NCBI GenBank assembly: GCA_014687725.1
Contig: GCA_014687725.1_4094.1
Origin: a phage
DNA: 64,000 nucleotides
Direction: 5' to 3' (one strand)
Program-made: the position numbers and the translations under genes
Shown: positions 2,242 to 36,423 of the stretch, one piece after another
Position numbering within the stretch: the first letter of the stretch is position 1
Layout of the letters: every line of letters begins with the position of its first letter
The notes under the pieces: generated by a model
Told to the model about the DNA's origin: nothing
Seen by the model: the letters and a program-made list of their open reading frames with translations, nothing else
The model's database searches: none

Positions 2242-2475
2242 ATGAAACTATCTTTTATACGTTTAGCAGAATTCTTCGGTACTGATATTATTACTTTACA
2301 ACAAATTGCAGACAATACTTCATTAAGTACACAAGAAGTACTTGACTTGGATGTAATTAAGTGCGATAATACTTCCATCGATTACAAAGAAGGTCTTGTC
2401 GAAAAAGATAAGATTCAGGCTAAGATTAATGGTGCTGGACGGGTTCAGTACTGGAAAGGAGTTTTAAGTAAATGA
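2242..2475 (+). CDS. hypothetical protein
   Basis: ATG after GAGAGG; ATGA overlap with next gene. Confidence 0.5.
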   Translation: MKLSFIRLAEFFGTDIITLQQIADNTSLSTQEVLDLDVIKCDNTSIDYKEGLVEKDKIQAKINGAGRVQYWKGVLSK

Positions 2476-3896
2476 AAATTTATATTGATAAATTTGGAAC
2501 GACTTATGAATATTATGATTATACACATTATAATTCATATATACAAAAAAATCATAACCAAATGTCACCTTATTTGCATTATGAAGATTTAATGGAACTA
2601 TTCTCTAAAAATTTAAATTCTATTAAATTTATTGGTTTTAAAGATCCAACATGGAAAAGTTCACATACGCATGTGTATTTTGAATATGATAATATGGTAT
2701 ATGAACATTCAATATCAAATATCAAAACAAAATTCGCTGATCATAGATATAAACCAGGTAGAATATGTAGAACCTTGGAACAAATTATAAATGAGTCCAT
2801 TTATATATTTAAAAAATATGATAAATTTAATTTTCATAGCATTGCATCATTTAATGGAGCACGAACTATAATCAATTATACAATTGAAGGACGTGAAAGA
2901 ATATTTTCTATATCATTCAATTCATTAATAAAAGATTTTAAAGGGGGAAGCCCATGTTATTCATATGAAGAAGTAGAAAATATATCTATAAAAAAATTAA
3001 ATGAACATAATTTGAGATTTATCTCAATTAGTAAATTTAATGGTGTGTTTAGTTGTATTGAATATGAACAACCAACTCAGAAAGGAAAAAAATATGTTGA
3101 TTTTAATATATTAATCTATAATGAATGGAAAGGTAATCTACCGAATATAACTAATGAAGAGGTGAATAATCGAATTTCAGAAAAAATGAAAAAACTAAAT
3201 ATCAATGAATATGAAATTGTAGAATATAACAGTACTAGGAGCATGGTTGAATATACAGTTGATGATATTTCATATACAACTAGTTACGATAAGATTATGC
3301 ATCCAACTTGGAAAGGTAATCCAAGATATACAAAAGAAAGAATAATAAAATTGTCGAAAAAATATTGCAAGGGTAAAAAATTTCAATTTAATAAAATAAT
3401 TGGTAATGTTAAAGGAATTAATACTATCATTGAATTAGAACTTGAAAATGGTATGTTTATATATCCAAAATTTATACAATTAAAAGGAGGTTCTGACTTT
3501 AATACATCCACTGATGGTAAGATTTTAACAGAAATAATTTATCCTTTGTTCGACAATTATATCACACAAAAACGTTTTGAAAATTGTAGAAATCCTGAAA
3601 CTGGATACTTGTTGCCATATGATTTGTATGTTCCAGAATTTAATTTATTATTAGAAAAAGATGGAGTGCAACATTACAATCCAACAGCATATTTTAATAA
3701 AACATATGAATCATATTTGAAATTGAGAGAGAGAGATGAATTTAAAAACAAATATGCCATATCAAATGGTTATAATTTCATGCGAATAGCAGATTATGAA
3801 GATCATGAAAAAATATTGAAATCTTTCCTTAAACTCATTGAAGAGAATCCAGGAAAGCAAATTGTGCAGATCTATGGTGAAGTACAAATTATCTAA
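2472..3896 (+). CDS. AT-rich protein with C-terminal Vsr/DUF559-like (PD-(D/E)xK) nuclease motif
   Basis: C-terminus YDLYVPEFNLLLEKDGVQHY ... NGYNFMRIADYE resembles the DUF559/Vsr endonuclease pattern; markedly lower GC than neighbours. Confidence 0.55.
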   Translation: MKIYIDKFGTTYEYYDYTHYNSYIQKNHNQMSPYLHYEDLMELFSKNLNSIKFIGFKDPTWKSSHTHVYFEYDNMVYEHSISNIKTKFADHRYKPGRICRTLEQIINESIYIFKKYDKFNFHSIASFNGARTIINYTIEGRERIFSISFNSLIKDFKGGSPCYSYEEVENISIKKLNEHNLRFISISKFNGVFSCIEYEQPTQKGKKYVDFNILIYNEWKGNLPNITNEEVNNRISEKMKKLNINEYEIVEYNSTRSMVEYTVDDISYTTSYDKIMHPTWKGNPRYTKERIIKLSKKYCKGKKFQFNKIIGNVKGINTIIELELENGMFIYPKFIQLKGGSDFNTSTDGKILTEIIYPLFDNYITQKRFENCRNPETGYLLPYDLYVPEFNLLLEKDGVQHYNPTAYFNKTYESYLKLRERDEFKNKYAISNGYNFMRIADYEDHEKILKSFLKLIEENPGKQIVQIYGEVQII

Positions 3897-3903
3897 AACA
3901 AAA

Positions 3904-3936
3904 GGGTTGACTTCGGTCGGCCCTTTTTGCTATAAT
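3904..3936 (+). promoter_or_regulatory. terminator/promoter element (copy 3)
   Basis: GGGTTGACTTCGGTCGGCCC + TTTTT + TATAAT. Confidence 0.6.
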
Positions 3937-3964
3937 TATTTCATCAACTGATGAGGATAACGAA

Positions 3965-4735
3965 ATGACCAGAGAAGCACGTAGCATTCAAATCCAGAAA
4001 AACTTCAACTCCATGATGGTTGCTCTTGAGTGTTTGCTCGACGATAGCAGTACTGTAAAAAGTATGGTTGTCAGCGGTGCACCTGGTGTTGGTAAGACTT
4101 ACACCCTGTCACAACGCCTCCAGAAAGCTCATGACGCAGCAGAATGGAACGTAGCCACTATCAGTGGTAAGATGACTACTCTTGCTCTGTATGAAGTTCT
4201 GTACAAGAATCGTCACAGCACTAATGTATTAGTACTTGATGATATGGATAGCATCTTTGAATCAGAAGATGGTATGAACCTACTTAAAGCTGTTTTGGAT
4301 AGTGGTAAGCGTACTGTATCTTATATGACTAGCTCTAAGTACTTGAGCACTAACGGCATTCCTAATAGCTTTGATTTTAATGGTCGCATCGTATTCATTA
4401 CTAACAAAGATTTAGCGTTAGATGCTAAAGCTAAAACTAAAATGTCTGCTCATTATGCTGCTCTTATGTCTCGTTCTGTGTACGTGGATTTACAGATTCA
4501 GACTAAAAGTGATATCATGATTCATATTGAAAATGTAATGACTAAGACTAATATTCTTGCATCTAAAGGTGTTAACAGTAACGGCAGTAAAGCAATTCTG
4601 AACTGGATGTTAAAACATGAAGATAATCTTCGTGCACCATCCCTGCGTATGCCTTTGTTGATTTCAGCAGTATATAACAACAATCCGTATGATTGGGAAG
4701 AACAATGTGAAAACTTGTTCCTTGAGAAAATCTAA
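3965..4735 (+). CDS. P-loop NTPase (AAA-like ATPase)
   Basis: Walker A GAPGVGKT and Walker B VLVLDD. Confidence 0.7.
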   Translation: MTREARSIQIQKNFNSMMVALECLLDDSSTVKSMVVSGAPGVGKTYTLSQRLQKAHDAAEWNVATISGKMTTLALYEVLYKNRHSTNVLVLDDMDSIFESEDGMNLLKAVLDSGKRTVSYMTSSKYLSTNGIPNSFDFNGRIVFITNKDLALDAKAKTKMSAHYAALMSRSVYVDLQIQTKSDIMIHIENVMTKTNILASKGVNSNGSKAILNWMLKHEDNLRAPSLRMPLLISAVYNNNPYDWEEQCENLFLEKI

Positions 4736-4802
4736 TTACATATGTTGACAGTACTACCATCGTGTAGTACTATAACTTAATATTCACCACCGGAGATACG
4801 AT

Positions 4803-5144
4803 ATGCTTGAGTTTTTTAATTCAGATACAATGCTTGGTATCACGCTAATTTACATGTTTGTATTTTTGTGTTATCATTCAATTGTAATTAGTCTGTGGTA
4901 TTTTAAAAGGAAAATTGTTTTTAAATTGTATTCGGATGATAATGTAGTCTTAGTTTTATATAGTATTATCCAAGGTGGGTTTATTTTATTTGGTGTGATG
5001 ACATATGCGATTTACATGTTACAAATTGATAATACACCACACATTACACAATATCTTGTGTTTTCAGGTCTAATCGTGTGGTTGTTGGTGTGTAGCATGT
5101 ACTTTATTATTAAAGCTCGTGATAGAATTAAAGGGGATTTCTAA
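4803..5144 (+). CDS. small multipass membrane protein, tandem family M (1/8)
   Basis: 3-4 hydrophobic helices; WYFKRK motif; close paralog of next gene. Confidence 0.6.
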   Translation: MLEFFNSDTMLGITLIYMFVFLCYHSIVISLWYFKRKIVFKLYSDDNVVLVLYSIIQGGFILFGVMTYAIYMLQIDNTPHITQYLVFSGLIVWLLVCSMYFIIKARDRIKGDF

Positions 5145-5482
5145 TGTTAACATTCTTTAAGTCAGATACAATGCTTAGTATTACTTTGATTTATCTGTTT
5201 GGTTTTTTCTTTTATCATGCACTAGTTGTAGTACTATGGTATTTTAAAAAGAAAATTGTTTTTAAACTGTATCCAGTGAGGAATTCATCACTAGTTCTTT
5301 ACACACTTGTTCAAGGTTTGTTTGCAATTGTTGGTCTTATGGCACACTTAATTTATTGTGCTAATCCTCACTTGAACTCAATCTCACAATATATTGTATT
5401 CTTTGGGTTGTTCATTTGGTTAGTTGTATACTTAATCCATCTCATTATTCATGGTAGAGATAAAATTCGCGGAGACTTCTAA
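5144..5482 (+). CDS. small multipass membrane protein, family M (2/8)
   Basis: Near-identical N-terminus to 4803 gene; TAATG coupling. Confidence 0.6.
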   Translation: MLTFFKSDTMLSITLIYLFGFFFYHALVVVLWYFKKKIVFKLYPVRNSSLVLYTLVQGLFAIVGLMAHLIYCANPHLNSISQYIVFFGLFIWLVVYLIHLIIHGRDKIRGDF

Positions 5483-5829
5483 TGTTTGAAGCTTATCTTG
5501 AGTTTTTAAGGAGTAGTCCAGTTGCACATTCAATTGCAGGGATTATTCTAACAGGTTATGTAACATTTTGGGTAGTTATGTTTCTAGGATGGTATTTTAA
5601 ACGACAATTCTATAAGCGTAATGGTGAAGATTTTATGAATTCTTTCATTAATCAATCGTTGTTTGCATCAACATTGATTGCATGTATTGTGGCTGTTCTA
5701 GCCGGAAAAGCACTACCTGCTTTTTCAGTCGTTTATGGAACAATTGGTATGATATGTGTAGTTTTTCACTTGATCATTAAACTTTGTTGTGTTATGATTG
5801 ACCTTCGAAACAAGATACCGGAGGAATGA
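5482..5829 (+). CDS. small multipass membrane protein, family M (3/8)
   Basis: Hydrophobic, WYFKRQ motif; TAATG overlap. Confidence 0.55.
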   Translation: MFEAYLEFLRSSPVAHSIAGIILTGYVTFWVVMFLGWYFKRQFYKRNGEDFMNSFINQSLFASTLIACIVAVLAGKALPAFSVVYGTIGMICVVFHLIIKLCCVMIDLRNKIPEE

Positions 5830-6164
5830 TGGAATATTTTTTACACTTACTGCCGTGGTATATGAAAGTTAGTACCATGTACTATATTATTAGTGCTGGA
5901 TTCTACTTTCTGATGTGGTTCTTTAAACGACCAATTTCAGTATTCATCGCTGATAACATGCTGCAATTAAAATTACACGCATGGTTTGGTCTGGCGATGA
6001 TTATGCCTATTATTCACTACTCAATGATTAGTAGAGGTTTCCGTTCTAATGGTGAACCAATTGTATTAGTATTCTATTGGGGTTCAACTATTGCATATGT
6101 AAGTTTGTTGTTGTTCCCAGTCGTTCATAAGTTACGTGCTAAAGTTCCTGATGCGAGGTACTAA
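5826..6164 (+). CDS. small multipass membrane protein, family M (4/8)
   Basis: Hydrophobic, WFFKR motif; ATGA overlap. Confidence 0.55.
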   Translation: MMEYFLHLLPWYMKVSTMYYIISAGFYFLMWFFKRPISVFIADNMLQLKLHAWFGLAMIMPIIHYSMISRGFRSNGEPIVLVFYWGSTIAYVSLLLFPVVHKLRAKVPDARY

Positions 6165-6478
6165 TGGATATAGTAACATTGATTTACACGTTGTATTCAT
6201 TCTATTTCATTATGTGTTGGGTTGGATTTTTATTTGTACTCAAGATGTTTGATTATGTTGAAAAACAGATAAAAGAATTTTGTATTCCTTTTATCGGTTC
6301 AACCATTATTAGTGTTTCTTGTGTGTATTTTTTGGTTTTTGATCCACCAGATAACACTGCAATGATTGACTTGATGTTACTACCAACAACTGTTACTTTT
6401 TTATGTAGTCTGATGCCGCCGATTAGCCGTGGACTAACAGAATTTAGACGCAATCAAAAGCGTAAACGAGGGATGTAA
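6164..6478 (+). CDS. small multipass membrane protein, family M (5/8)
   Basis: Hydrophobic; C-terminal basic tail QKRKRG. Confidence 0.5.
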   Translation: MDIVTLIYTLYSFYFIMCWVGFLFVLKMFDYVEKQIKEFCIPFIGSTIISVSCVYFLVFDPPDNTAMIDLMLLPTTVTFLCSLMPPISRGLTEFRRNQKRKRGM

Positions 6479-6846
6479 TGGAAATTGCTCTTATTATCTT
6501 AACTGCTATGTTGTTTATTAGTACTGTGGTTATAATTGGTAAATTCTTTTGTGTATCATTTTTAGAAACGGTATACGATGAAATTGCTGATGATTATGAA
6601 CTACAAGCCGGATTTTTCATTACGTATTGGCTTAGTTTATTTTGTCTAGTCATTGCTTGGATTTTACATATCTTTAAATGGGGTATGGTAGACGGTGATC
6701 CTATTATGGCAATTATTGTTCTAGTGTTTGGTATCCTTGGTGGTGCAGTGCATAATCTAATGGTTATCTGGCAAACTGTTCAATATGTTTTGGTTCCCTA
6801 TTTCGAAAAGATGCACAGTACAATTAAAAAACGTAAACGAGGTTAG
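6478..6846 (+). CDS. small multipass membrane protein, family M (6/8)
   Basis: Hydrophobic; C-terminal KKRKRG like previous. Confidence 0.5.
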   Translation: MEIALIILTAMLFISTVVIIGKFFCVSFLETVYDEIADDYELQAGFFITYWLSLFCLVIAWILHIFKWGMVDGDPIMAIIVLVFGILGGAVHNLMVIWQTVQYVLVPYFEKMHSTIKKRKRG

Positions 6847-6847
6847 T

Positions 6848-7210
6848 ATGAACGGGATAGAATTATCTTTCGTTGGTCAATTACTAGTAATGGCGTATAC
6901 ATTTATCTTCTCACTGAATGCATTCGTGTGCATTGGGAAGTACTTCCATAAGCGACCATTATCAAATATATATGATGTAATCCAAAAGAGATATAGTCCA
7001 GCATATACTGTGTTGGGTACAGTATTCAATTTTGGTTTTATTGTATTAATAATTGGACTGTTCACATCCTCTTTGAATACAATAACCTTCGGTCTTATGA
7101 TATGTTCATTGGTATTAGCCGTAATTATATGTTGTTTAGTACTGCACCTTGTGGTACTATTGTATATAAAGATCTCTGAAATCCACCAACGTTTGGGTAT
7201 GAGGAAATAA
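6848..7210 (+). CDS. small multipass membrane protein, family M (7/8)
   Basis: Start moved from track 6785 to in-frame ATG 6848 right after previous stop. Confidence 0.5.
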   Translation: MNGIELSFVGQLLVMAYTFIFSLNAFVCIGKYFHKRPLSNIYDVIQKRYSPAYTVLGTVFNFGFIVLIIGLFTSSLNTITFGLMICSLVLAVIICCLVLHLVVLLYIKISEIHQRLGMRK

Positions 7211-7211
7211 T

Positions 7212-7583
7212 ATGAGTTACCGTGAGATATTTTCCATTATTTCAATTATTATGTTCAGTACTGGAACACTGGTATGGTTATTATACTTCTTCTGTATTAA
7301 TCCAGTGTATAATATGTTATGTAATATTAAATCAAGTGCCGGATATATCACTTTTATGGTCTTTATGGGATATTATTGTCTAAGCATTTTAGGTGTTGTT
7401 TTGGTTGTTATATTTGATGTGGGACCAAATAGTGATGGTATGGAAATACATGAATTAATAACCATGTTTGGATGTATGATACCAACAGCACTACTGTTTG
7501 TAGCTACTGGTAGTGGATTGATAAAATTATATAATTATTTAAAATCCATTCATAATTCCATTCATAATAAGCGTATGTCATAA
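7212..7583 (+). CDS. small multipass membrane protein, family M (8/8)
   Basis: Hydrophobic; GAGGAAATAATATG start context. Confidence 0.5.
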   Translation: MSYREIFSIISIIMFSTGTLVWLLYFFCINPVYNMLCNIKSSAGYITFMVFMGYYCLSILGVVLVVIFDVGPNSDGMEIHELITMFGCMIPTALLFVATGSGLIKLYNYLKSIHNSIHNKRMS

Positions 7584-7587
7584 TAAA

Positions 7588-7613
7588 AATCCAGTACTAT
7601 TAAGTACTGGATT
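7588..7613. terminator. perfect 11-bp inverted repeat hairpin AATCCAGTACT-atta-AGTACTGGATT
   Basis: Perfect palindrome between membrane array and next gene; no T-run, so terminator assignment tentative. Confidence 0.35.
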
Positions 7614-7624
7614 AATAAGGAGTT

Positions 7625-8287
7625 ATGATGAAAACAAAATTAGGTTTGTTTTATAAAAATTATTTCGTTAAACAGCGTAAATTTATAAAAAAATATTTCT
7701 CTGGTGAGAAGTCTAGTCCTATAATTTTTAAAAGACCAAGTTATAATACTTACTTAGCTGGTGCTAAACAGTCTAAGAAATTTATTACTCTTTTAAATAA
7801 AAACAAAATTAAAGCTTCTTATGTTGAAACGAGAAGAAACTCATCAATAACTCCTGGTGATTTTATTGAGTACGGATGTTTCAATATTAAGTACAATGAT
7901 AATACATACTTTATGGATATTGATTGTAATACATCCAATCTTTTTAACATTGTAGTAAATCCATTAAAACAATATAATGTTTATGGTGATTCTATTATCA
8001 AATTAATCAAAAACAAAGATAGCTTTGATTTTGAAATAAATGTTTTAGATGATAATTTTGACGAAGTACCAGTAAACCCTGAAATCTGTGATATTTTAAA
8101 CAGTTTAAAAGGTAGTACCTACAATATATCATCTGATTTAATGTTTCAGTACTCATTAATCCATAAAGATATTGAAAAGTATATTGAATGCTCCAAAATT
8201 TTGAATTATCTTTACGATGAATTTAAAAAGAGTTCTAAAATAACTGCATACACTTTGTACAATATTCCTAAAATGGTGAATCTTTGA
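7625..8287 (+). CDS. hypothetical AT-rich protein carrying family-C signature (LMFQYSLIHKD)
   Basis: ATG after AGGAG; motif matches EEYFQxSLVxD family in 54-64 kb. Confidence 0.5.
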   Translation: MMKTKLGLFYKNYFVKQRKFIKKYFSGEKSSPIIFKRPSYNTYLAGAKQSKKFITLLNKNKIKASYVETRRNSSITPGDFIEYGCFNIKYNDNTYFMDIDCNTSNLFNIVVNPLKQYNVYGDSIIKLIKNKDSFDFEINVLDDNFDEVPVNPEICDILNSLKGSTYNISSDLMFQYSLIHKDIEKYIECSKILNYLYDEFKKSSKITAYTLYNIPKMVNL

Positions 8288-9420
8288 CAAATACAGTACT
8301 GGCAACTCCACCGTCTGTAATATATTGTCCAGTACTGTAAATTTGTATACCATCGGTTAAGTAAGTTCTGTATAAAGTTGCTGTAACATATACGTTATTC
8401 ATATTCATCTCTATTGGTAGTACACATTTGGTATAGGCCGACACATCTGTTTGTGTACCTATACCCAATTGACCTGCGTTATCGCCTGTGTTATAACCAG
8501 TTGCGTAAACACCTAATGAAGTTATAATATGATTAGAAAAATATGAATAACCCACACTGCTTCTTATTATATCACCTGGTGCTTGTGTTGTTTGTCTTAA
8601 CGAAATATATGTTTGTGATGTAGAACCATTTGCTAACTGACCAAAGTACTGTCCACCACCATGATATGCAAATAATTTATTAGTACTATTATTACTTGCT
8701 ATAGCAAAAGCGAAGTAACTTGAGTTTGTTGTATAATCTTTCACCGTATAGGTATTAGTTATTTGAGAACATAACGTGTACTTTGAATATAACGTCATGT
8801 CGGTTGTACCTACGCCTGATATTGCACCAGTATAATACAATCTCCCATCGGTTCCAATAAATCCTTGCATAAGAAAATTTGCCAGTATTTTGGATGGTGT
8901 TACTCCAGTAGGTACTGTTCCTTGTACAAATGATGAAAGTGAATCGGTACTTCTACCATTTCCCAGTTGTCCATAACTACCATAACCAGTATTCCATATC
9001 GTGTTGTCTGTACATAATACGCTTAATGCACCTGCACTAACTGCAATTTGTTTTATTGTTTTTCCTAGGGCTGTTATTCTATCAAACACTATCTTTGCAG
9101 AAGCCCACGTAGTAGACTTATCAGTTGATAAACCCAATGATGCACCATTCCCAGCGTACCACATCGTATTATCTTTCTTTTTTATTAAAGTTGACTCATA
9201 CCCGCACCCATATATCTTCTACGTTTGTATTGCATAAAACCCATTGGGTCTGTGTTATAATATTACCTATACCCATTTGCCCAAACTCTTGAGAGCCTCT
9301 ACTGTATAGTGTCCCGTCTGACATAAGGGCAAAAACTGTCGTATCAGATGAAGATATTTTGGTAACAGTAGGGGGTAGGTTCTTTTTTGATGATGTGATA
9401 ATTCTTCCAAAGGGTAGCAT
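8268..9420 (-). pseudogene. frameshifted MLPFGR-family RCC1-like propeller paralog (1/13)
   Basis: N-terminal ORF 9196-9432 (MLPFGRI...DIWVRV*) and C-terminal ORF 8268-9164 join by a 1-nt shift in a GGG run near ~9204-9210 to give DIW-CGYESTLIKKKDNTMWYAG, matching gene 2. Confidence 0.5.
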
Positions 9421-26983: not shown

Positions 26984-27620
26984 ACTAGAGTACAGGAATG
27001 TTCACGTTTAATCAAGAACGTAGCAGTACTGATATGCCACTAAGTAGGCAGAGGAAGTCTGCCGTACTTTGTAGTTTCCAAGCTCCTTTTCCATTTTTCA
27101 AATTACATCAAATGTAATCAAAAGTAATCACGCAATGATTAGTACTGAATTATTACTTTCACCTTAATTTCAATTACCCCTTTACCCTTCGGGGTAAAAT
27201 TCCATTACCCCTTGAGGCTCCAGCAAAAAGTTGGTTAGTACTCCATCCTAAATCTCGATCCTAAAAATTTTGGAGTACCTATGAAATAAAAGTTGGATCT
27301 TCGAAAGTTGAAATTTACGTTGGGACGTTTATGATTTGTGGGATATAATGATGTTTGTAGTCGGGTAGTTCTCAAGAATATCAGTACTGAATGGTGAAAG
27401 AAAGTTATTGACATTATGATTCAGTACTGTATAATGTTCTACATAGAGAGATGAGTTGCTGCGAACAATTCATTTACTCTACCTCCTGTCGTGAGACAGT
27501 ACAGAAAAGATAGTTCCTCCTGTGGTGGTACATCTTTTTGAACCTCATATGAAAATCGTAATAACAGTACTGATATTAACAGAATGGTGTCAGTACTGAT
27601 TTTAATCTAAAGCATTATGC

Positions 27621-27639
27621 CACCAGCTTGTGCTGGTGG
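27621..27639. repeat. perfect inverted repeat CCACCAGC-ttgt-GCTGGTGG (Chi octamer in both orientations)
   Basis: Direct reading; hairpin-capable palindrome containing Chi. Confidence 0.6.
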
Positions 27640-27785
27640 ATTCCCTCTAACAGTATTCAGTACTACATGATGGTCTTCATCCTCCTAGGGTAACATAGTG
27701 AGGGCTATGATGGCAGTACTGAATACTCCCTTTCAAAAGATAGATCTATGGTATAGTACTGACGGATTTTGGGTGTAGTTACCCT

Positions 27786-27945
27786 GGATGGATTTTGGAC
27801 GTAGATATGTCTAGTCCTCCAGAAGTCTGGAAGTAAAGATGGCTATCCATCTAGACGGCTAAACGGCTAGATTTCTGGATGGCTGGATGGCTAGACGTTT
27901 GGACGGCTAGATGGTTACACGTCTGGAAGTATAGACGGCTAAATC
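27786..27945. repeat. iteron-like cluster of short direct repeats (GACGGCTARA, GGATGGCT, TCTGGAAGTA) followed by AT-rich tract
   Basis: At least 8 imperfect repeat units in ~150 bp, then aaaattttattttgtttttt. Confidence 0.55.
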
Positions 27946-28685
27946 AAAATTTTATTTTGTTTTTTCCAATAGTTCCCCTACCGCGTGGGGATAGTTTCCC
28001 CGCAGTATCTGGAGTTAGATTTTTCTGAATCTGGAATCATTATCTTATAAACTGGGGGCAATGTCAACGGCCTGGACGGATATTTTTAAAAATTTTTTCA
28101 GTACTGAATTTTGGGCGTAACTATGCACCCGGTGGGCTTGAGTCTTTCTCGACTTGATGGAACTATTATACAGTACTGGAAAAATAAAGCAATACCCTGG
28201 AAGCAAAAAAGTTTTAATTAATTTGCTTGCTATCCTGGGCCGGACTATGGTACTATATTTCAGTACTGAGAAAGTGCTTTTACCTGCTAGGGTGCGGGAG
28301 TGTATCCTTTTTAAATTTACTGAATTTTGGGCGTAGTTCCGCACCCTGTGGGTTAGTGCCTTGTGTCCGGCTTATGTAGTAATTATACGCTTTTTCAGGA
28401 TCAAGTCAATACCTAAAAACAAAATAATTGAAAATAATTTAACGCGTTTAAACGGCCCGTAAAGCCCTGGAATGATTGGAATGGTGCAAATGTATAGCTT
28501 AGGTGTATTAATGCGTTAGAATGCGTCTGAGGCCGTTTTATGGGGTGTAGTAGTGATTTGGTTGATTCAGTACTGAATGATAGTACTACTATATAGAAAG
28601 ATAGTTCCCCTGGATGGTTGCAGTACTGAAAGATAGTTCCCCTATATAGAAAGAAAACTATTTTAAAAGTATTTGTAGAAAGTAC

Positions 28686-28713
28686 TTGCAAAGTATTGGG
28701 AAAGGTGTAGAAT
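28686..28713 (+). promoter_or_regulatory. early-type sigma70-like promoter (type 1)
   Basis: AGTACTTGCAA -35, 16-nt spacer, TAGAAT -10, then gTTTTACATcgag and 5' hairpin; this architecture recurs >20 times in 28.7-47 kb. Confidence 0.5.
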
Positions 28714-28770
28714 GTTTTACATCGAGACGGGGGATACGCTCCCGACTCACTTTTAAAAGAGATTAAAACG

Positions 28771-29133
28771 ATGGCGACTCAAATCAATACTATCATGCTT
28801 AACCTGGTTTCTTTCCGTGAAGAGATGAAAGATCTTCCCGCTGAGACTGTACGGATTCACATTGCAGCTTATCGGGAATTGATTGCAATGCTGCCGCTTA
28901 AGCGTGAACAGTACGCCGCTACTGCAATGCTGGACGCAATGATACATAAGATGATCCAGACTGATTTAACGATGGCTTATCAGTACATGGGCGAAATGTT
29001 TGCAGTGTATAGCAAGCCAGTACCAGGAATGGAAAGTACAGAAGTATTACACGGCTTAAACTTAAAACAAGATGCATGGGATAATATGCCTCGTTTCCTG
29101 GTATGGGCTGATAGTGGAAAGATTTACGAATAA
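28771..29133 (+). CDS. hypothetical early protein
   Basis: Own promoter and leader hairpin; ATG start. Confidence 0.6.
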   Translation: MATQINTIMLNLVSFREEMKDLPAETVRIHIAAYRELIAMLPLKREQYAATAMLDAMIHKMIQTDLTMAYQYMGEMFAVYSKPVPGMESTEVLHGLNLKQDAWDNMPRFLVWADSGKIYE

Positions 29134-29147
29134 GTTTTTAAAAGTAC

Positions 29148-29175
29148 TTGCAAAGTAAGTTTAAAGGCGTATAAT
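29148..29175 (+). promoter_or_regulatory. early-type promoter (type 1)
   Basis: TTGCAA, 16 nt, TATAAT. Confidence 0.5.
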
Positions 29176-29187
29176 ACTTTACATCAG

Positions 29188-29207
29188 GTGGGGAATAGTT
29201 CCCCACT
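29188..29207 (+). promoter_or_regulatory. conserved 5'-UTR stem-loop (example copy)
   Basis: GTGGGGA-atagt-TCCCCAC between -10 box and SD. Confidence 0.5.
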
Positions 29208-29226
29208 ATATAAGAGGATTAAAAAA

Positions 29227-29466
29227 ATGGCTAAATCAAAAATGTTCTTAGGTCACAAAAACAAAACTCAATGGAATGTAAGCCTTTGGATTAATAACGA
29301 CGAATCATTATACCGGTTGGCCCAGGACTTTATTGCCGCTAACACTAATCGTAATGATGCGGCCCGTCATATGATGCTATTTTTAGAACAGACTGGACAA
29401 GATAAAACACCGGACGGCTTTAAGTATAGCACTACTGCGATCCGTGCGGCGATGGTTGGAATGTAA
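29227..29466 (+). CDS. hypothetical early protein
   Basis: Track ORF starts at GTG inside the leader hairpin; ATG at 29227 follows AAGAGGA. Confidence 0.55.
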   Translation: MAKSKMFLGHKNKTQWNVSLWINNDESLYRLAQDFIAANTNRNDAARHMMLFLEQTGQDKTPDGFKYSTTAIRAAMVGM

Positions 29467-29548
29467 GAGAATAGATTAAAAGTACTATTGCACGGTGATA
29501 GTACTTTATAATAGATTTCTTTTATACAACAACGATAGGGGTAACAGC

Positions 29549-29815
29549 ATGAATATTATATACTTTGCAACGCGTGAACTTGCTCGGATTGCCGCACGCC
29601 AGGACGGGGCGACGTTTAAAGATATGGGCGTACAATCTGAACGTGGTAAACGTTGGGCCGTAGTAAAGCAAAGTACAGCCCGTTCAATTCAGTACTGGCT
29701 ATCTGCTTTAAAGCGTCCTGATAGTGTATCGCGTCGCGTGGTAGAAATAAAGCACGACCGCAAGGGCAACCGCGTTACTGTGTACAGTACTAAAAAGATT
29801 GCAGTACTTGAATAA
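29549..29815 (+). CDS. hypothetical early protein, paralog of 41865-42260
   Basis: Shared YATRE.ARI.AR..GA.FKDMG...RWAV and HDRKGNRVTVYS blocks. Confidence 0.55.
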   Translation: MNIIYFATRELARIAARQDGATFKDMGVQSERGKRWAVVKQSTARSIQYWLSALKRPDSVSRRVVEIKHDRKGNRVTVYSTKKIAVLE

Positions 29816-29901
29816 AAAGTACTTGCAAACTATGTTTAAGGGCGTATAATGTTTTACATCGAGAGCGGGAATAGTTCCCGCCTATAACCAGGAGTAATAA
29901 A

Positions 29902-30132
29902 ATGACCAATATGTATATGACTGAAGTTAAAACCGTAAAAGATACTACCACTAATAAAACTACTTACTTACAGCGGATCTGCGGTGTATGGCAACGTATC
30001 AGCAAATCAAAGTACTTTAAATTAACATCATATGCCAATCGTTCGGATTCATTCAGTACTGAAATAAAAGGTAATAAAGTACACCAATACGGCACTTATT
30101 ATTATTATAGCCTGGAGGCGATTGCAGTATAA
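29902..30132 (+). CDS. hypothetical early protein
   Basis: Promoter + GCGGGAA-tag-TTCCCGC leader hairpin + AGGAG. Confidence 0.55.
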   Translation: MTNMYMTEVKTVKDTTTNKTTYLQRICGVWQRISKSKYFKLTSYANRSDSFSTEIKGNKVHQYGTYYYYSLEAIAV

Positions 30133-30159
30133 GTAGTTTACAAATCTTTACAATTGCCA

Positions 30160-30350
30160 GTATTGACTTATTTTGTCAGTACTGGCATAATGTATTCATT
30201 GGCAGATAAGCCGTAGCCCATAGGGTGCGGGAGTGTATCTATAGAAAAATTAGTTTAGTATAGTTACAATTGTGCACCCGGTGGGTTAGCTGTTGTCATG
30301 GGGTATATTATGCCAGTACTTGATAATGCTGTCAATACTTTTTTTTAATA
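30160..30350 (+). repeat. structured repeat element with own promoter (candidate small RNA)
   Basis: TTGACT, 17 nt, CATAAT, then inverted arms CCCATAGGGTGC ... GCACCCGGTGGG and U-run; arms recur elsewhere. Confidence 0.35.
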
Positions 30351-30559
30351 TTCAGTACTGAAAACTATTTTTAAAAAGTACTTGCAAACTATGTTTAAAG
30401 GCGTATAATGTTTTACATCAGGACGGGGGACGAAATAAGTAACTTCCCGTTAAGTAGCCCAGGAGTAAGGCACACGAAAAACTCCCCTGATAAAATAGTT
30501 TGACAATTGTTTTTAAAAGCGTATAATACTTACATCAACTACTGAATGAGGGTTACAAA

Positions 30560-31171
30560 ATGAAAACTATCACTACTACTACTTTCGTTATGGATTTTTC
30601 TGAATTGAACGCAGAACAACAAACGTCAGCTATCGAACTGGTTCGGGAACGTGAAAAAAACTCAAACGACAATTATTTTTCTGAAAGTGAAATTGAATAC
30701 TATAAAGAAACAGTACTACCGGAATATGGCATTAATGACGCTGAAATACAATTCAGTGGTTTTTGGTCCCAGGGTGACGGTGCATCAATCAGTACTGACC
30801 ACGTTGACGCAGTGAAGTTTTTACGCAAGGTAAGAGCATTAACTAAGTATCGCTCAATCCGTCACCTGCTGAATGAAGATGATTTGGCGATGAGTGTAAA
30901 GCGTTCTCACTCCCACTACTCGCATGAGAATACTGTAAGCGGGTACATTGAATCGGCTTACACTGATTTAACCGCAAAACAAGAAACGTTAGTTAATGAG
31001 CTTGAGGAACTACTCACTGAAACTATTCGTGAATTGTCCCGCAAGTTGTACCGTGATTTAGAGAATGCATATGAGGATCAATTCACTACTGAAAACATTA
31101 CGGCACTGATTGAGGGTAACGAATATCAATTCAATGTTATTGATGGCGTAGTAGAATCAATCGAATATTAA
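30560..31171 (+). CDS. hypothetical early protein (203 aa)
   Basis: Tandem promoters with structured leader upstream; ATG after GAGGG. Confidence 0.6.
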   Translation: MKTITTTTFVMDFSELNAEQQTSAIELVREREKNSNDNYFSESEIEYYKETVLPEYGINDAEIQFSGFWSQGDGASISTDHVDAVKFLRKVRALTKYRSIRHLLNEDDLAMSVKRSHSHYSHENTVSGYIESAYTDLTAKQETLVNELEELLTETIRELSRKLYRDLENAYEDQFTTENITALIEGNEYQFNVIDGVVESIEY

Positions 31172-31264
31172 TTCAAAAAGTACTTGCAAACTAAGTTTAA
31201 AAGCGTATAATACTTTATATCGAGGCGGGGAATGGTTCCCCGCTCACACTAAAAGGGCAACAAA

Positions 31265-31537
31265 ATGAAAACTTTAAATATCACAACTGCACATCAATTG
31301 GTTCGGGATGCAATGGATCATGTGCAAGATTTCTTCCCTGATGTAAGTGTCGTAACTTATGAAAAAGGTACTTGGACTTATTCAACAATTAATGGTTATG
31401 AGCCTGATTTCGATGATCTGGAAGAAATGGAATTTAATTTTGATCTGCTGAATGATGCCGCCCGTGAAGTTGAAAACGATGTTCAATACATTGATGGTTC
31501 TGTCGCACCTGATGCAGTAAAAGAATTAAAAAACTAA
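31265..31537 (+). CDS. hypothetical acidic protein
   Basis: Promoter + leader hairpin + ATG. Confidence 0.55.
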   Translation: MKTLNITTAHQLVRDAMDHVQDFFPDVSVVTYEKGTWTYSTINGYEPDFDDLEEMEFNFDLLNDAAREVENDVQYIDGSVAPDAVKELKN

Positions 31538-31622
31538 AAAGTACTTGCATTGTAGTTAGATTAACGTATAATACTTTATATCGAGGCGGGGAATGGTTCC
31601 CGCCTTTACTGAGGGTTATCTA

Positions 31623-31883
31623 ATGAGCAAAGTAATTAACTATACAGTGTTAAGCAAGTCATTGTCTATTAGCCAATGTACTGATGGTTATTGGCTTTAT
31701 GATGAAACGCGTGGCATGAATTTAGCTATGCAGGAGAAAACTACTGATGCGGCATATCTTAAAGCACTGGAATACTACCAGAAGCGTTTAAAGGAAGTAG
31801 AAAACGATTATAATAACCTGAAAGCGAAAGTAGATAATTTCGTTGGTCAATTCATCGAGGAAGACGACGACATACAATATTGA
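31623..31883 (+). CDS. hypothetical early protein
   Basis: Start moved to ATG downstream of leader hairpin. Confidence 0.5.
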   Translation: MSKVINYTVLSKSLSISQCTDGYWLYDETRGMNLAMQEKTTDAAYLKALEYYQKRLKEVENDYNNLKAKVDNFVGQFIEEDDDIQY

Positions 31884-31968
31884 AAAAGTACTTGCAATTA
31901 GTTTTTAGTACTGTATAATGGTTTACATAGAGGGGGAAATGGTTCTCCCTGGTAATGAGGAAAATAAA

Positions 31969-32190
31969 ATGGCTAATATCACTACTCTTTCCCAACTGGA
32001 AGCACTGGTTAAATCTATGCGGGAACATGCCGACAAAATCGGCGTACAAGATCCAGCCGTTTGCTTCTGCGACGAATTGAATGATGATACCCTGGTAATA
32101 GCAGAAGTCCAGGACGTTTCTAACTATTCCTCGCGTTACACTGGCGGCGTAGCAAATAAAGGTGACTTCTGTTTATACCTTACAAAATAA
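31969..32190 (+). CDS. hypothetical early protein
   Basis: Start moved to MANITTL after AATGAGGAAAATAAA. Confidence 0.5.
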   Translation: MANITTLSQLEALVKSMREHADKIGVQDPAVCFCDELNDDTLVIAEVQDVSNYSSRYTGGVANKGDFCLYLTK

Positions 32191-32194
32191 CAAC

Positions 32195-32225
32195 GCGGGG
32201 AGATAATAACTCCCCGTTACTTTTT
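32195..32225 (+). terminator. intrinsic terminator
   Basis: GGGGAG-ataataa-CTCCCC then gttaCTTTTT. Confidence 0.5.
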
Positions 32226-32433
32226 CAGTACTGAATCATTTAATAGACGGATCTCGGCACCCGGTGGGTTAGTGACTGTTTCGTCTTGATGTAGTAATTA
32301 TGCCAGTACTGGATGCACTTGTCAACAACTATTTTTCAAATACTTTTTATTAAAATACTTGCAATTAGTTTTTAAACGCGTATAATGTTTTGCATAGGGG
32401 GAGCGGTTCCCCTGGTAACTAAGGAATAAGAAA

Positions 32434-32670
32434 ATGGTCGAACAAATCAAATCAACGTCTTCGAATGTAACGGGAACGGTAGCACACTTTACTAGTGATG
32501 AATCGCGGGGCGTTCCCTATTGTGCTGTACATGTAAACACTGAGGGTAACTACTGGTTTACGGTTTACGGATCATATTCATTTGGACGGCCAGGGCATCA
32601 AAAAATTCTGGATAAAGTACAACCAACGGGTAAAAATATCACTGCCGAAATGTTTTATAAAAAATCATAA
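32434..32670 (+). CDS. hypothetical early protein
   Basis: Promoter + hairpin + AAGGAATAAGAAAATG. Confidence 0.55.
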   Translation: MVEQIKSTSSNVTGTVAHFTSDESRGVPYCAVHVNTEGNYWFTVYGSYSFGRPGHQKILDKVQPTGKNITAEMFYKKS

Positions 32671-32754
32671 AGTACTTGATAATAGTTTTTAGTACTGTAT
32701 AATATTTTACATCGCAAGGGGGAGCGGTTCCCCCTGGTAACTAAGGATAATCAA

Positions 32755-33054
32755 ATGAAAATTGCAATCATCGCCCTGGCTTTATCTGTTTCCTCTTTCG
32801 CTGTTAATGCGTCATTAGATGTAAGTAGTGAAAAATTCATTCAGTGCACTGTTGCAATGACCGATGAAAGTACTGGCGAGATTGTTTTAAAGGATTTAGA
32901 GATCCAGCCAGAAGCATTTAAAAACGGGCCGTTCCATGAAGAAGACGAAAAAGGTAGCACGACAATTTATTACGATGCAAGTACTAAACGCGGTTCGGTC
33001 ACTGTTATGGATACTGAGAAAGTTACATTCACTGGCGTAATTAATTGTTTATAA
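32755..33054 (+). CDS. secreted/periplasmic small protein (predicted signal peptide)
   Basis: MKIAIIALALSVSSFAVNA/SLD: n-h-c regions with AxA-like cleavage site. Confidence 0.6.
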   Translation: MKIAIIALALSVSSFAVNASLDVSSEKFIQCTVAMTDESTGEIVLKDLEIQPEAFKNGPFHEEDEKGSTTIYYDASTKRGSVTVMDTEKVTFTGVINCL

Positions 33055-33071
33055 TATAGTACTGAATCACT

Positions 33072-33100
33072 AGCCCACTATAAGAAGTGGGCTTTTTTTA
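33072..33100 (+). terminator. intrinsic terminator
   Basis: AGCCCACT-ataagaa-GTGGGCT + TTTTTTT. Confidence 0.65.
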
Positions 33101-33292
33101 TTGTAGTATTGTAGTACTGGTATACTTTGAAAATAGTTTTAAAAAAGTAGTTGACATTACCAGGGAAAAGCGTAGAATGTATTACATCAAGACGGGGAAC
33201 ACTAAGTAGACCGCCAGTAAGTCGAATGAAAAACTGGACACGTCAAACAAACTTTGATAAACTAACTTAAACTTTAATTGAGGATTTATAAA

Positions 33293-33775
33293 ATGGCTAA
33301 TGTAAAATCATTTCTGAAAGCACTGATTTCTAACGATACTGTTATTGCTGCTGAATTGCTGGCTGACCTGGATAATGATACCATGAAAGCAGTACGCAAC
33401 AATTTTAACATTGCTTACAGTGAAGCGAAAGAACTACAAGCCAAAAAGGTAGCAGAACTGGAAGAACAGAAAAAAGCCCGTGAAGCAGAACTGCAAGCAA
33501 CAATAGAAAGTATTCAGGCGGCGGTGTCTGGTTTAGATCTGGAAGTGGTTATTGAAATGGCACATAAAGCCCTGGCGGTTAAGTACGGTGAAGATAAGCC
33601 GGAATCTAAGCCTAAAAAATGGATTCAAGAACGTGTTACGGTTGTCCTTGATAACGGGGAAGAACATTTGATTCCTGTACGCGGTAACTGCATTGCGGTA
33701 GTACTGGATGCAATCAAAGAAAGCGGTATGACTCGCGAGGAATGGATCGAAGCTCACCGCAAAGTTGAAGCATAA
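33293..33775 (+). CDS. hypothetical protein (160 aa), coiled-coil-like central region
   Basis: Start moved to MANVKSF after GAGGA; K/E/A-rich heptad-like stretch. Confidence 0.55.
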   Translation: MANVKSFLKALISNDTVIAAELLADLDNDTMKAVRNNFNIAYSEAKELQAKKVAELEEQKKAREAELQATIESIQAAVSGLDLEVVIEMAHKALAVKYGEDKPESKPKKWIQERVTVVLDNGEEHLIPVRGNCIAVVLDAIKESGMTREEWIEAHRKVEA

Positions 33776-33796
33776 CAATTAAAGTACTGAATCACT

Positions 33797-33823
33797 AGCC
33801 CACTGTATAAGTGGGCTTTTTTG
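33797..33823 (+). terminator. intrinsic terminator
   Basis: AGCCCACT-gtata-AGTGGGCT + TTTTTT. Confidence 0.65.
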
Positions 33824-34059
33824 TGTTTATCGTTTACCAGGCCACCAGCACCGCCTAGAATCGATTCTAACGCATTAAACTGATTATCTGATGCATCGCC
33901 CTAGCTGGTGGCGTTAAGGTCGTTAGAATGCGATTGAGGACGTTTAAAGTATTTTGCAAAAAGTAATAAAAAGTACTTGCACGATTAAGAGATTAGCGTA
34001 TAATGTTTTACATCGAGAGGGGGAAACGGTTCTCCTTCCAAATCAAAGGAATCAAAACA

Positions 34060-34287
34060 ATGGCTATCGTAATCGCTTATGTAACTGGTACTACTGGCAC
34101 TTCTTCTACTGTTGCTGTAATTACCAACAAGAAAGGTGCGGAATTACATTCTGCAATGGATACCTGGGCGGTAAATGAGTTCGGTCAGTGGGCAAGTGTA
34201 GCATATGTTGAAACCTATCAAGTGCCAACCATTAGCTTAACGGATCTCGGTGTAGATCGTATCCTTTGCCTGGATGAATTAAATTAA
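34060..34287 (+). CDS. hypothetical early protein
   Basis: Start moved to MAIVIAY downstream of leader hairpin. Confidence 0.5.
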   Translation: MAIVIAYVTGTTGTSSTVAVITNKKGAELHSAMDTWAVNEFGQWASVAYVETYQVPTISLTDLGVDRILCLDELN

Positions 34288-34373
34288 AAAAGTACTTGCA
34301 AAGTAAATCAGATAAAGTATAATACATTACATCAAGGGGAGAAATGGTTCTCCCTGATAATGAGGAAACTAAT

Positions 34374-34517
34374 ATGAAAACTTGTCAATGTGGTAAAAAA
34401 TCTATTACTGGTTTAAAGCGGGGCGTTGCTCTTTGCCAGTACCATTATAATTTACAAGTATGGGGTAAAGAATGGGCCGACCAGGTGGAAGCAGCAAAGA
34501 AAGCAAAAAGTAAGTAA
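34374..34517 (+). CDS. small Cys-containing protein (47 aa)
   Basis: Below track cutoff; full promoter-hairpin-SD-ATG context; CQCG...C.YH pattern. Confidence 0.4.
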   Translation: MKTCQCGKKSITGLKRGVALCQYHYNLQVWGKEWADQVEAAKKAKSK

Positions 34518-34536
34518 AATTATTATCACAGTACTA

Positions 34537-34565
34537 TTGACATAGATTGATAGTACTGGCATAAT
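34537..34565 (+). promoter_or_regulatory. early promoter (type 2, AGTACT-flanked)
   Basis: cAGTACTaTTGACA, 17 nt, gatAGTACTGG-CATAAT; no 5' hairpin; recurs at ~34820, ~37690, ~37970, ~38500, ~45410. Confidence 0.5.
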
Positions 34566-34598
34566 AGATTTTATCAAGACAACTAAGAGGAAACAATA

Positions 34599-34811
34599 AT
34601 GGCTATCATCACAAAAATCAAAGTAAACAAATCACTGGTTAAGCTGGAAGAAGTGAAAGAAGGTTATAAAGTATCGTGGTGCGGCATGTATCGGATTTTT
34701 ACAGATGTTGACGATGCAATCAATTACTACACTGACACGGTAAAAAACTTTGTTCGTGCTGATGTGGTTATGGCAGTGGCAACACACAAAGCATCGAAAG
34801 AAAGTAAGTAA
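34599..34811 (+). CDS. hypothetical early protein, paralog of 37763-37942
   Basis: Both start MAII.K; type-2 promoter upstream. Confidence 0.55.
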   Translation: MAIITKIKVNKSLVKLEEVKEGYKVSWCGMYRIFTDVDDAINYYTDTVKNFVRADVVMAVATHKASKESK

Positions 34812-34892
34812 AAATATTATCACAGTACTATTGACATAGTTTGATAGTACTGGCATAATAGATTTTATCAAGACAACTAAGAGGAAATTAAA

Positions 34893-35237
34893 ATGGCTAA
34901 TATCAACACTATCGCAAAACAAAATATCAACCTGTCTTCTGTTGAAGTTGTACATATTGCCGCTCGGCGTTGGTTCCAGGCTTCATATGGTAACACTTAT
35001 TTCTCTTTAAGTGTAGACGTAGAAATTGATGGTAATTTTATTGAAGTAGTAAACGTGCCGTTCCAATATGGATACGGGGATCACTTTGACACTGTAGCAA
35101 TGGAAGAATTTAGCAAGGTTATTAATATGGAAGATAAAGAGTTTTTACGCGGTTCTTATCTTTCCCGTTTTTGCCGTGACAATAATATCACTGTTTACAG
35201 TTCGGTAACTGATGTTAAACGCAAAAAAGATCTTTAA
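34893..35237 (+). CDS. hypothetical protein, paralog of 41446-41769
   Basis: Shared W...GNTY.S..V and F.YGYG and ITVY..V.DVKRKKD blocks. Confidence 0.6.
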   Translation: MANINTIAKQNINLSSVEVVHIAARRWFQASYGNTYFSLSVDVEIDGNFIEVVNVPFQYGYGDHFDTVAMEEFSKVINMEDKEFLRGSYLSRFCRDNNITVYSSVTDVKRKKDL

Positions 35238-35317
35238 TTAGCTTTACTTTATGCAGATACTTTGATATAGTGTCTGCATAGGGGAAAGAAATTAAATTAA
35301 CTTAAGAGGATAGTATA

Positions 35318-35587: not shown

Positions 35588-35638
35588 TCAAAACATCGTT
35601 AGCGGTCGATTTAGGCCGCTTATATTGGGGATTATACC

Positions 35639-35911: not shown

Positions 35912-35916
35912 TTAAT

Positions 35917-36126: not shown

Positions 36127-36195
36127 TTTTTAAACGCGTATAATGTTTTACATGAAGGGGAGAAATGATTCTCCCCACTAATTAAGGAATATGAA

Positions 36196-36342: not shown

Positions 36343-36423
36343 TACTTGCAATTAGTTTTTAGTACTGTATAATAGTTTACATGAAGGGGAGAAATAGTTC
36401 TCCCCAATAACAGGAGAAACAAA

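Follow-up and report, generated by a model that had tools for sequence, protein, structure and literature searches.

Small inner-membrane proteins of several described kinds invite comparison with the locus analysed here. Class I holins (lambda S105 type) are small, with three transmembrane (TM) segments, an N-out/C-in topology and a charged, basic cytoplasmic C-terminus. T4 Imm and Sp are small inner-membrane proteins under early promoters. They are dispensable accessory proteins that shield the infected cell at the level of its envelope, are encoded by single genes and have fewer TM segments than the proteins described below. Immunity proteins against E1-type pore-forming colicins, which we use as a lead only, are three-TM inner-membrane proteins of ~110 amino acids (aa) that recognise their targets within the membrane, and immunity genes often lie in diversified tandem arrays of 'orphan' paralogs. 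Here we describe an operon of eight translationally coupled open reading frames (ORFs), M1-M8, encoding three-TM paralogs at positions 4803-7583 of a 64-kb stretch of phage DNA (GenBank assembly GCA_014687725.1, contig GCA_014687725.1_4094.1; hereafter the window). No account of the array was found in the searchable literature. An earlier note, made from the letters of the window, had pointed to eight consecutive ORFs of 104-123 aa at these positions, and all of them are present in the ORF list:

4803-5144, plus strand: M1, 113 aa, three-TM, WYFKRK motif, phrog_19454; missing in many close relatives
5144-5482, plus strand: M2, 112 aa, three-TM, WYFKKK motif; paralog of M1
5482-5829, plus strand: M3, 115 aa, three-TM, WYFKRQ motif, phrog_19046; the 'hub' subfamily in profile comparisons
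5826-6164, plus strand: M4, 112 aa, three helices with TM1 and TM2 rich in aromatic residues, WFFKRP motif, phrog_27396; the best-conserved member
6164-6478, plus strand: M5, 104 aa, three-TM, basic C-tail RRNQKRKRGM, phrog_33258
6478-6846, plus strand: M6, 122 aa, three-TM, GKFFCV motif, acidic loop 1, basic C-tail KKRKRG, phrog_26405
6848-7210, plus strand: M7, 120 aa, three-TM, GKYFHKRP motif; no PHROG match
7212-7583, plus strand: M8, 123 aa, three-TM, basic C-tail, phrog_27618

Over bases 3900-8300 the DNA shares 99.8% identity with Escherichia phage SHEFM2K and 95-97% with phages 121Q, PBECO4, G17 and Sharanji; the window is from a 121Q/PBECO4-type jumbo coliphage (genus Asteriusvirus, RaK2-like). 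It holds ~153 putative ORFs, and all those of up to 150 aa with at least three predicted TM segments fall within the array. No further member of the array family was found among the window ORFs outside 4803-7583. The start of M7 was taken as 6848, which has a Shine-Dalgarno site and is the start annotated in relatives; the mechanical ORF opens at 6785, inside M6. Shine-Dalgarno sequences (GGAG, GAGG or similar) lie 6-9 nt upstream of all eight starts. Four junctions are TAATG overlaps and one (M3/M4) is an ATGA overlap; the TAATG/ATGA coupling described earlier thus applies to five of the seven junctions, the remaining two (M6/M7 and M7/M8) being 1-nt spacers. Hydrophobic helices, put at three to four per protein in the note, are found in every protein, and their number is exactly three: each sequence contains three strongly hydrophobic 19-residue segments by the Kyte-Doolittle scale, with Wimley-White sums of -6 to -16 kcal/mol. 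The first two helices of M4 are weaker on the Kyte-Doolittle scale (1.38), and an AlphaFold2 model of M4 places helices at 11-32 and 47-69 with a predicted local distance difference test score (pLDDT) of only 67. The charge distribution obeys the positive-inside rule for a predicted N-out/C-in topology, from which we infer that the short N-terminus is periplasmic and that loop 1 (13-22 residues) and the basic C-tail are cytoplasmic.

Pairwise BLAST clearly relates only M1 and M2 (54-58% aa identity), the remaining pairs being marginal. The first two genes, called close duplicates in the note, are indeed the nearest pair, but their duplication is old, with a synonymous divergence (dS) of 1.6. 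Ortholog-group profiles (prefixed G) were built from the window and from phages WPEC5, ph0011, UE-S1, A4, Turkey5, RaK2 and K64-1, and were compared by hhalign against a null of reversed-sequence profiles matched in composition and TM pattern, for which the maximum score over 56 comparisons was 18.7. The highest scores were obtained for G3-G4 (61.5, 97% probability, 106 columns) and G6-G8 (42.1, 109 columns), followed by G3-G5 (39.3), G3-G7 (36.8), G6-G7 (36.7) and G1-G3 (32.2). Overall, the comparisons that tie the eight proteins together scored 21-61. Because these links exceed the null and connect the groups in one graph (G1-G3-G4, G3-G5, G3-G7 and G7-G6-G8), we conclude from the profile-profile scores that M1-M8 are one divergent family, as the description of the locus as a tandem paralog array had proposed. 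Intermediate sequences also bridge the subfamilies: RaK2 ORF312 matches both M4 and M1, and A4_232 matches M6, M7 and M3. An extra member of the RaK2 ORF316 type (G9) showed no clear link to the family by hhalign (best score 19.2 versus the null of 18.7). Two clades can be distinguished by their motifs. M1-M4 carry W[YF]FK[RK] directly after TM1 and R-x-K-[IV]-P after TM3, with W31, F33, K34 and R104 (M4 numbering) invariant in alignment A2, while in M5-M8 the segment after TM1 reads G[KR][FY]F in three of the four proteins and all four have a basic C-tail. Hence the WYFK(R/K)K-like motif that had been ascribed to all eight is strict in M1-M4 only; M7 has KYFHKRP, and M5, M6 and M8 retain merely a degenerate x[FY]F.

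Public databases do not recognise this relationship. Scans of M1-M8 against Pfam, NCBIfam and PADLOC returned only sub-threshold noise (MLANA, 7tm_3, SUR7, Wzy, the SdhC-like TIGR02970 at E 0.047 and, as the best PADLOC match, PycTM at E 0.018). Full-length PHROG membership was found for M1/M2, M3, M4, M5, M6 and M8 (families 19454, 19046, 27396, 33258, 26405 and 27618, E 1e-49 to 1e-70). All six families are labelled 'unknown function', and distant array members match the same PHROGs or none. The database thus keeps six unrelated families and none for M7, where we see one divergent family in a conserved array. A profile search of the PDB gave no match at E ≤ 10, and Foldseek searches with the M4 model against the PDB and BFVD gave nothing below E ~1. 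A stator of the MotA/TolQ/ExbB type was considered and rejected: Pfam MotA_ExbB is not matched at E ≤ 1, and loop 1, given its length, is not large.

The array lies directly 3' of a short NrdC.10-like AAA+ ATPase gene in every RaK2-like genome sampled. The comparison with related phages that the earlier note had proposed reveals copy-number variation between four and 12. Eight three-TM copies are found in the window, Turkey5, RaK2 and K64-1, about eight in a 361-kb JGI contig (L020), and seven in slurp01, WPEC5 and EJP2; PBECO4 likewise has seven, judged from DNA match length, and A4 has seven plus one two-TM extra. The GAP32-like genome has four copies and Erwinia phage Hallingskeid ~11, and the metagenomic contigs have six (L012) and 12 (L013/L014). 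The order of subfamilies is largely kept, with WFFK-type genes usually first (two to six copies), then M5-, M6/M7- and M8-like genes and, in some genomes, additional types; exceptions to this order are EJP2 and the GAP32-like genome. The array is thus kept in Asteriusvirus, Alcyoneusvirus, EJP2, the GAP32-like genome, Hallingskeid and the metagenomic contigs, and the family as a whole has a very narrow range. Only 26 clusters among 5.8 billion sequences were matched by a profile of the eight paralogs, an M1-M4 profile found 10 matches in an exhaustive hmmsearch of 1.84 billion representatives, and tblastn with M4 and M2 found Asteriusvirus and Alcyoneusvirus records only, plus one weak match in an Erwinia phage. 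No array follows the NrdC.10 homologs of T4-like phage AR1, PA5oct, Vibrio phage VP-1, Xanthomonas phage BUDD or two more distant metagenomic contigs. A link to phage phi92, suggested by the label 'Phi92_gp231/gp233' in ph0011, was rejected: since tblastn of M2 against 50,697 phage records (E ≤ 1) gave no phi92 match, we treat the label as an artefact.

In several relatives the array is followed directly by a gene for a DUF1190 protein with a lipobox-like sequence ending in Cys (A4, L005, 6803-7354; K64-1, L009, 5785-6372; L012, 5417-6001; L020, 11240-11899). The domain is Pfam-confirmed in L012 and L020, the K64-1 copy is annotated 'outer membrane lipoprotein', and RaK2 has an ORF of similar size at this position. 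This neighbour suggests an envelope-directed locus. No DUF1190 homolog was found anywhere in the window, where the array is followed by an unrelated 220-aa ORF (7625-8287) that has no Pfam hit. A conserved 42-aa soluble ORF (MKPEQWII.DMRAMR...) either lies within the array or heads it in RaK2 (L004, ~3767-3895), K64-1 (L009, 2807-2935), Hallingskeid (L015, 4850-4978) and EJP2 (L019, 7152-7280), and the window has none.

The array genes evolve under constraint and are reshuffled at the same time. Ratios of nonsynonymous to synonymous substitution (dN/dS) for the array genes against ph0011, WPEC5 and UE-S1 are 0.06-0.67, mostly 0.15-0.4. The ATPase value lies below most array values in each comparison (0.03 versus 0.11-0.67 against WPEC5; 0.13-0.14 versus 0.06-0.42 against ph0011 and UE-S1). 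Reading frames are kept at 23-39% aa identity in RaK2, and also in the metagenomic arrays. By these measures, the array ORFs are true protein-coding genes, and the selection on them is purifying but relaxed. Conservation is uneven along the proteins: mean pairwise identity within ortholog groups is highest in TM1, cytoplasmic loop 1 and the C-tail (~0.47) and lowest in TM2, periplasmic loop 2 and TM3 (0.29-0.35). M1 is present in some and missing in others of phages that are >95% identical, and the single M1/M2-type gene of slurp01 consists of the first 30 nt of M1 joined to the body of M2; on this pattern, copy number changes by recombination. Sequence identities further show the array alleles to be mosaic, cassette by cassette: in WPEC5, M3 is 95% and M8 63% identical to the window, in A4 the ATPase is 96% identical versus 26-66% for the array proteins, and in ph0011 the ATPase is 59% identical versus 73-86%. 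Within Asteriusvirus the ATPase exists as two alleles, one with 96-97% aa identity (A4, WPEC5) and one with 59% (ph0011, UE-S1). Because the ATPase allele of a phage does not follow how closely its neighbouring array is related, a recombination boundary lies near 4736-4802. Finally, in Salmonella phages of the SD series (310-326 kb; e.g. SD-2_S15) the equivalent of window positions 4247-5143, from the ATPase C-terminus through M1, is deleted, and 49 codons of M3 are lost in frame. If these isolates are viable as deposited, the deleted parts would appear to be dispensable. The same deletions are natural knock-outs usable for phenotype work.

Expression signals around the array, and the gene that precedes it, are as follows:

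3907-3936, plus strand: sigma70-like promoter TTGACT-18-TATAAT (11/12) in a GGG...CCC hairpin, upstream of the ATPase gene
3965-4735, plus strand: NrdC.10-like AAA+ ATPase, 256 aa; precedes the array in all RaK2-like genomes sampled
4745-4773, plus strand: sigma70-like promoter of the operon, TTGACA-17-TACTAT; its spacer contains AGTACT twice (4750 and 4766), as an inverted repeat
7588-7613, no strand assigned: stem-loop with an 11-bp stem, AATCCAGTACT-loop-AGTACTGGATT; T-run on the minus-strand side, weak on the plus side

With its perfect TTGACA, the operon promoter is one of an AGTACT-bearing class that recurs in this phage and is also found at 42573, 42849 and 22502. It is kept in slurp01, WPEC5, ph0011, UE-S1 and Turkey5. 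Since no terminator was found between the ATPase unit and the array, the promoter at 3907 can also drive the array. No recognisable sigma70-like promoter precedes the array in A4, RaK2 and K64-1, and the array is therefore probably co-transcribed with the ATPase in these phages. By its sequence, the stem-loop at 7588-7613 closes the operon. The stem is kept in slurp01, WPEC5, ph0011 and UE-S1; in Turkey5 its place is taken by a longer, equivalent stem flanked on either side by T-runs. In the related phage CBB, RpoD-like promoters are the hallmark of the presumed early region, and late genes carry a T4-like ATAAATA motif (PMC5259590). The T4-type late-promoter core TATAAATA does not occur in the whole window (~17 expected), and other late-promoter cores are depleted window-wide (ATAAATA, two versus ~48 expected; TAAATA, 29 versus ~150). 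From the sigma70-like promoter, the CBB pattern and the absence of TATAAATA we infer early expression of the operon. No transcriptome for the RaK2-like group was found in the searched literature.

Several further features of these signals were observed. The hairpin-embedded promoter at 3907 is one copy of a unit, 'aaaGGG TTGACT tcggtcagCCCtttttgc TATAAT', that recurs on the plus strand at 904, 2186, 3907, 36813, 40506, 43783 and 46040. Its -35 hexamer lies within the 5' arm of a terminator-like stem, and the unit appears to combine a terminator and a promoter. In the region ~27400-46200, mostly on the plus strand, over 20 near-consensus promoters (TTGACA-N9-11-AGTACTG(G)-[TC]ATAAT) precede short ORFs, which gives the region the look of a densely packed set of early genes. 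Copies of the palindrome AGTACT (often CAGTACTG) number 252 in the window versus ~21 expected, a ~12-fold enrichment. Coding sequence holds 159 of the sites and non-coding sequence 93; 46 adjacent pairs are no more than 40 nt apart, in promoter spacers and hairpin stems, sites at 4750, 4766, 7593 and 7603 flank the array, and the 4-kb bins 48001-52000 and 56001-60000 have none. A literature search on AGTACT enrichment found nothing; the palindrome may serve a phage factor as a site for binding or modification. Late-promoter cores are depleted despite the presence of apparently structural genes related to RCC1 on the minus strand. At least two such ORFs lie in tandem there (8268-9164 and 9493-10662), abutting the operon, and the equivalent genes of relatives bear the annotation 'regulator of chromosome condensation'. 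This flank, with RCC1/WD40_RLD and Laminin_G_3 domains, is also kept in distant relatives. On the other side, a 474-aa ORF (2472-3896, plus strand) appears by eye to repeat modules of ~60 aa internally; counterparts at this position are annotated as an endonuclease (121Q) or a DUF4379 protein (Turkey5), and 121Q has ~2 kb of additional DNA between this region and the array.

The ATPase gene was assigned by several lines of evidence. It matches the annotated nrdC.10 of T4-like phage AR1 (tblastn, 38% identity, E 7e-48) and Pfam AAA (PF00004, 24.5 bits versus a cut-off of 21.2), and its Walker A residues G38, G41, G43 and K44 are invariant. By homology, then, the protein belongs to the T4 NrdC.10 family, which is present in 1310 phage records. 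Its AlphaFold2 model is confident (pLDDT 93) and has a generic AAA+ fold (Foldseek probability 1.00 to AAA+ ATPases), equally near to ORC/Cdc6, RuvB, Bcs1, sigma54 activators, RFC and NSF. Such a generic fold speaks neither for nor against the ATPase as a partner of the membrane proteins. Array-linked ATPases are of a short form (254-264 aa), while NrdC.10-like ATPases elsewhere have 320-384 aa.

What might the array do? The early-type promoter, apparent dispensability, cassette mosaicism, the variable TM2-TM3 hairpin and the adjacency of DUF1190 in relatives lead us to favour, tentatively, a diversified battery for membrane-level protection or takeover. The proteins would be made early and inserted into the host inner membrane, where the paralogs would act as a diversified set of individually dispensable accessories that alter or guard the membrane of the long-lived infected cell. 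Superinfecting phages or other membrane-attacking agents would be the likeliest targets. The conserved TM1 and cytoplasmic juxtamembrane motifs (W[YF]FK[RK] or G[KR]FFC following TM1; R-x-K-[IL]-P or a basic tail following TM3) could provide insertion, topology or a shared interaction, and the fast-evolving hairpin of TM2, periplasmic loop and TM3 could give each paralog its own specificity. Of the roles listed in the earlier note, superinfection exclusion and membrane remodelling are compatible with the early-type promoter, the accessory behaviour and the cassette mosaicism. Several points weigh against a protection or takeover battery. Scans of Pfam, PHROG, NCBIfam and PADLOC revealed no homology to any superinfection-exclusion, immunity or defence-related family. 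To our knowledge, superinfection-exclusion proteins are the products of single genes, never of arrays. The early timing is read from promoter sequence, and that the SD-series deletion phages are viable is an assumption based on their having been deposited as isolates. Moreover, gene order, M4-M8 orthology, coupling and the location of the conserved motifs on the cytoplasmic rather than the periplasmic side suit a single complex at least as well.

Such a complex is the next most probable explanation, although we consider it only a possibility: each paralog would contribute a distinct subunit to a single hetero-oligomeric assembly in the inner membrane (for example a channel, a scaffold or a platform for anchoring), possibly run or assembled by the AAA+ ATPase, which may dock on the conserved cytoplasmic motifs. 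All RaK2-like genomes sampled have the array after the ATPase gene, even where ATPase identity has dropped to 46%, and the probable co-transcription in RaK2, K64-1 and A4 points the same way. Start/stop overlaps favour balanced synthesis, the subfamily order is largely kept with M4-M8 as one-to-one orthologs across genera, conservation peaks in TM1 and the cytoplasmic segments, the array-linked ATPases share the short form, and among the fold relatives of the ATPase are Bcs1 and NSF, whose targets are membrane proteins. However, a fixed assembly fits poorly with the range of copy numbers and with the gain and loss of subfamilies: RaK2 has one M6/M7-type gene and the GAP32-like genome four members altogether, and M1, part of M3 and most of the ATPase are missing from naturally occurring phages. 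The ATPase and array alleles recombine independently, as A4 and ph0011 illustrate; the ATPase family is widespread, yet the array was found in none of the non-RaK2-like phages examined; and the fold is as close to ORC/Cdc6, RuvB and RFC as to the membrane-acting relatives. The RCC1-like flank is equally syntenic, so the ATPase adjacency may be mere collinearity within the clade. A more specific version, in which the array forms a modular ring or platform of up to a dozen three-TM paralogs, specific to RaK2-like phages and coupled through its cytoplasmic motifs to the short-form NrdC.10 ATPase, seems to us unlikely.

We give about the same low weight to a set of host-takeover or anti-defence effectors, in which every paralog would inhibit or hijack its own target among the inner-membrane proteins of the host (for instance a transporter, a protease or a membrane effector of abortive infection). 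The early-type promoter, with other sigma70-like-promoter units as neighbours, the fast and mosaic evolution and the restriction of the family to one phage clade (the 26 clusters and 10 representatives given above) would all be expected of such effectors, and the variable intramembrane hairpin could mediate helix-helix recognition. Nevertheless, the proteins have no similarity to a known anti-defence or takeover protein, the PycTM match being non-significant, and subfamily identities are kept even though the hosts differ (Escherichia, Klebsiella, Erwinia and, for the GAP32-like genome, putatively Cronobacter). This explanation also overlaps with the protection battery and is inseparable from it by sequence.

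A role as holins, antiholins or class I-type lysis-timing regulators that control endolysin release is considerably less probable still. M1-M8 do have the generic class I architecture (~105-120 aa, three TM segments, a predicted N-out/C-in topology and a basic C-tail), the RaK2-like endolysin has an N-terminal TM domain, and the CBB paper names no holin (PMC5259590). Lysis-timing control, another role put forward in the earlier note, is nevertheless disfavoured because the operon has a sigma70-like promoter without a T4-type late motif, because no endolysin or spanin gene is adjacent (the neighbours encode the AAA+ ATPase and RCC1-like proteins) and because a separate T-type holin candidate exists: the authors of the fEgEco12 genome report a 220-aa T4 T-type candidate elsewhere in that genome (HHpred match to 6PX4_B, 89.9). 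In addition, no holin-family match was found in Pfam (E ≤ 1), PHROGs or NCBIfam and no sequence match in the PDB, there is no dual-start motif with an intervening charge, and eight to 12 holins in one operon would be unprecedented. The note had remarked that none of the proteins resembles a canonical holin by eye. Homology and context bear this out, while the class I shape is in fact shared; the argument against a holin role is thus one of context and missing homology, not of shape. Lastly, that the ORFs are non-functional chance frames in AT-rich DNA, with hydrophobic translations arising from the T-rich codons that the negative AT skew of the plus strand favours, is effectively refuted by dN/dS below 1 for all eight genes in several comparisons, by frames maintained across genera, by the Shine-Dalgarno sites and coupled junctions and by subfamily-specific motifs that persist in distant metagenomic arrays.

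RaK2-like jumbo phages are under development for therapy against E. coli and Klebsiella, and most of their genes have no assigned function. Eight 'hypothetical proteins' from six unlinked PHROGs can now be read as one clade-wide array of a three-TM family in four to 12 copies. Should the protection battery prove true, it would show a slow-growing giant phage defending its host cell against faster competitors, which would affect the design of phage cocktails. An ATPase-linked, multi-subunit machine would instead be a new kind of phage membrane apparatus and would give the widespread NrdC.10 family its first functional context. The locus is readily testable, being small, bounded by a promoter and a terminator and naturally deleted in part in several members.

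Set against the described systems, the array has affinities with each. It shares with class I holins the size, the three TM segments, the basic C-terminus and, by prediction, the N-out/C-in topology, and differs from them in its early-type promoter, its many copies and its lack of lysis-gene neighbours, holin homology and a dual-start motif. Its promoter type and TM predictions agree with the early-made small inner-membrane proteins of a T4-related myovirus such as Imm and Sp; in contrast to these, there are four to 12 paralogs with three TM segments each, in a largely conserved order and without sequence similarity, no Imm or Sp family being among the Pfam and PHROG matches. The ~110-aa length, three TM segments and tandem paralogy recall, as a lead only, the E1-type colicin immunity proteins. 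Unlike the arrays of immunity genes, however, the locus has no detectable homology to them, belongs to an early-type phage operon, not to a locus for bacteriocins or toxins, and keeps order and orthology across genera where shuffling is usual. Overall, we suggest that the array is best placed among the early accessory small membrane proteins of large myoviruses, from which it stands apart by its multi-copy, order-conserved organisation.

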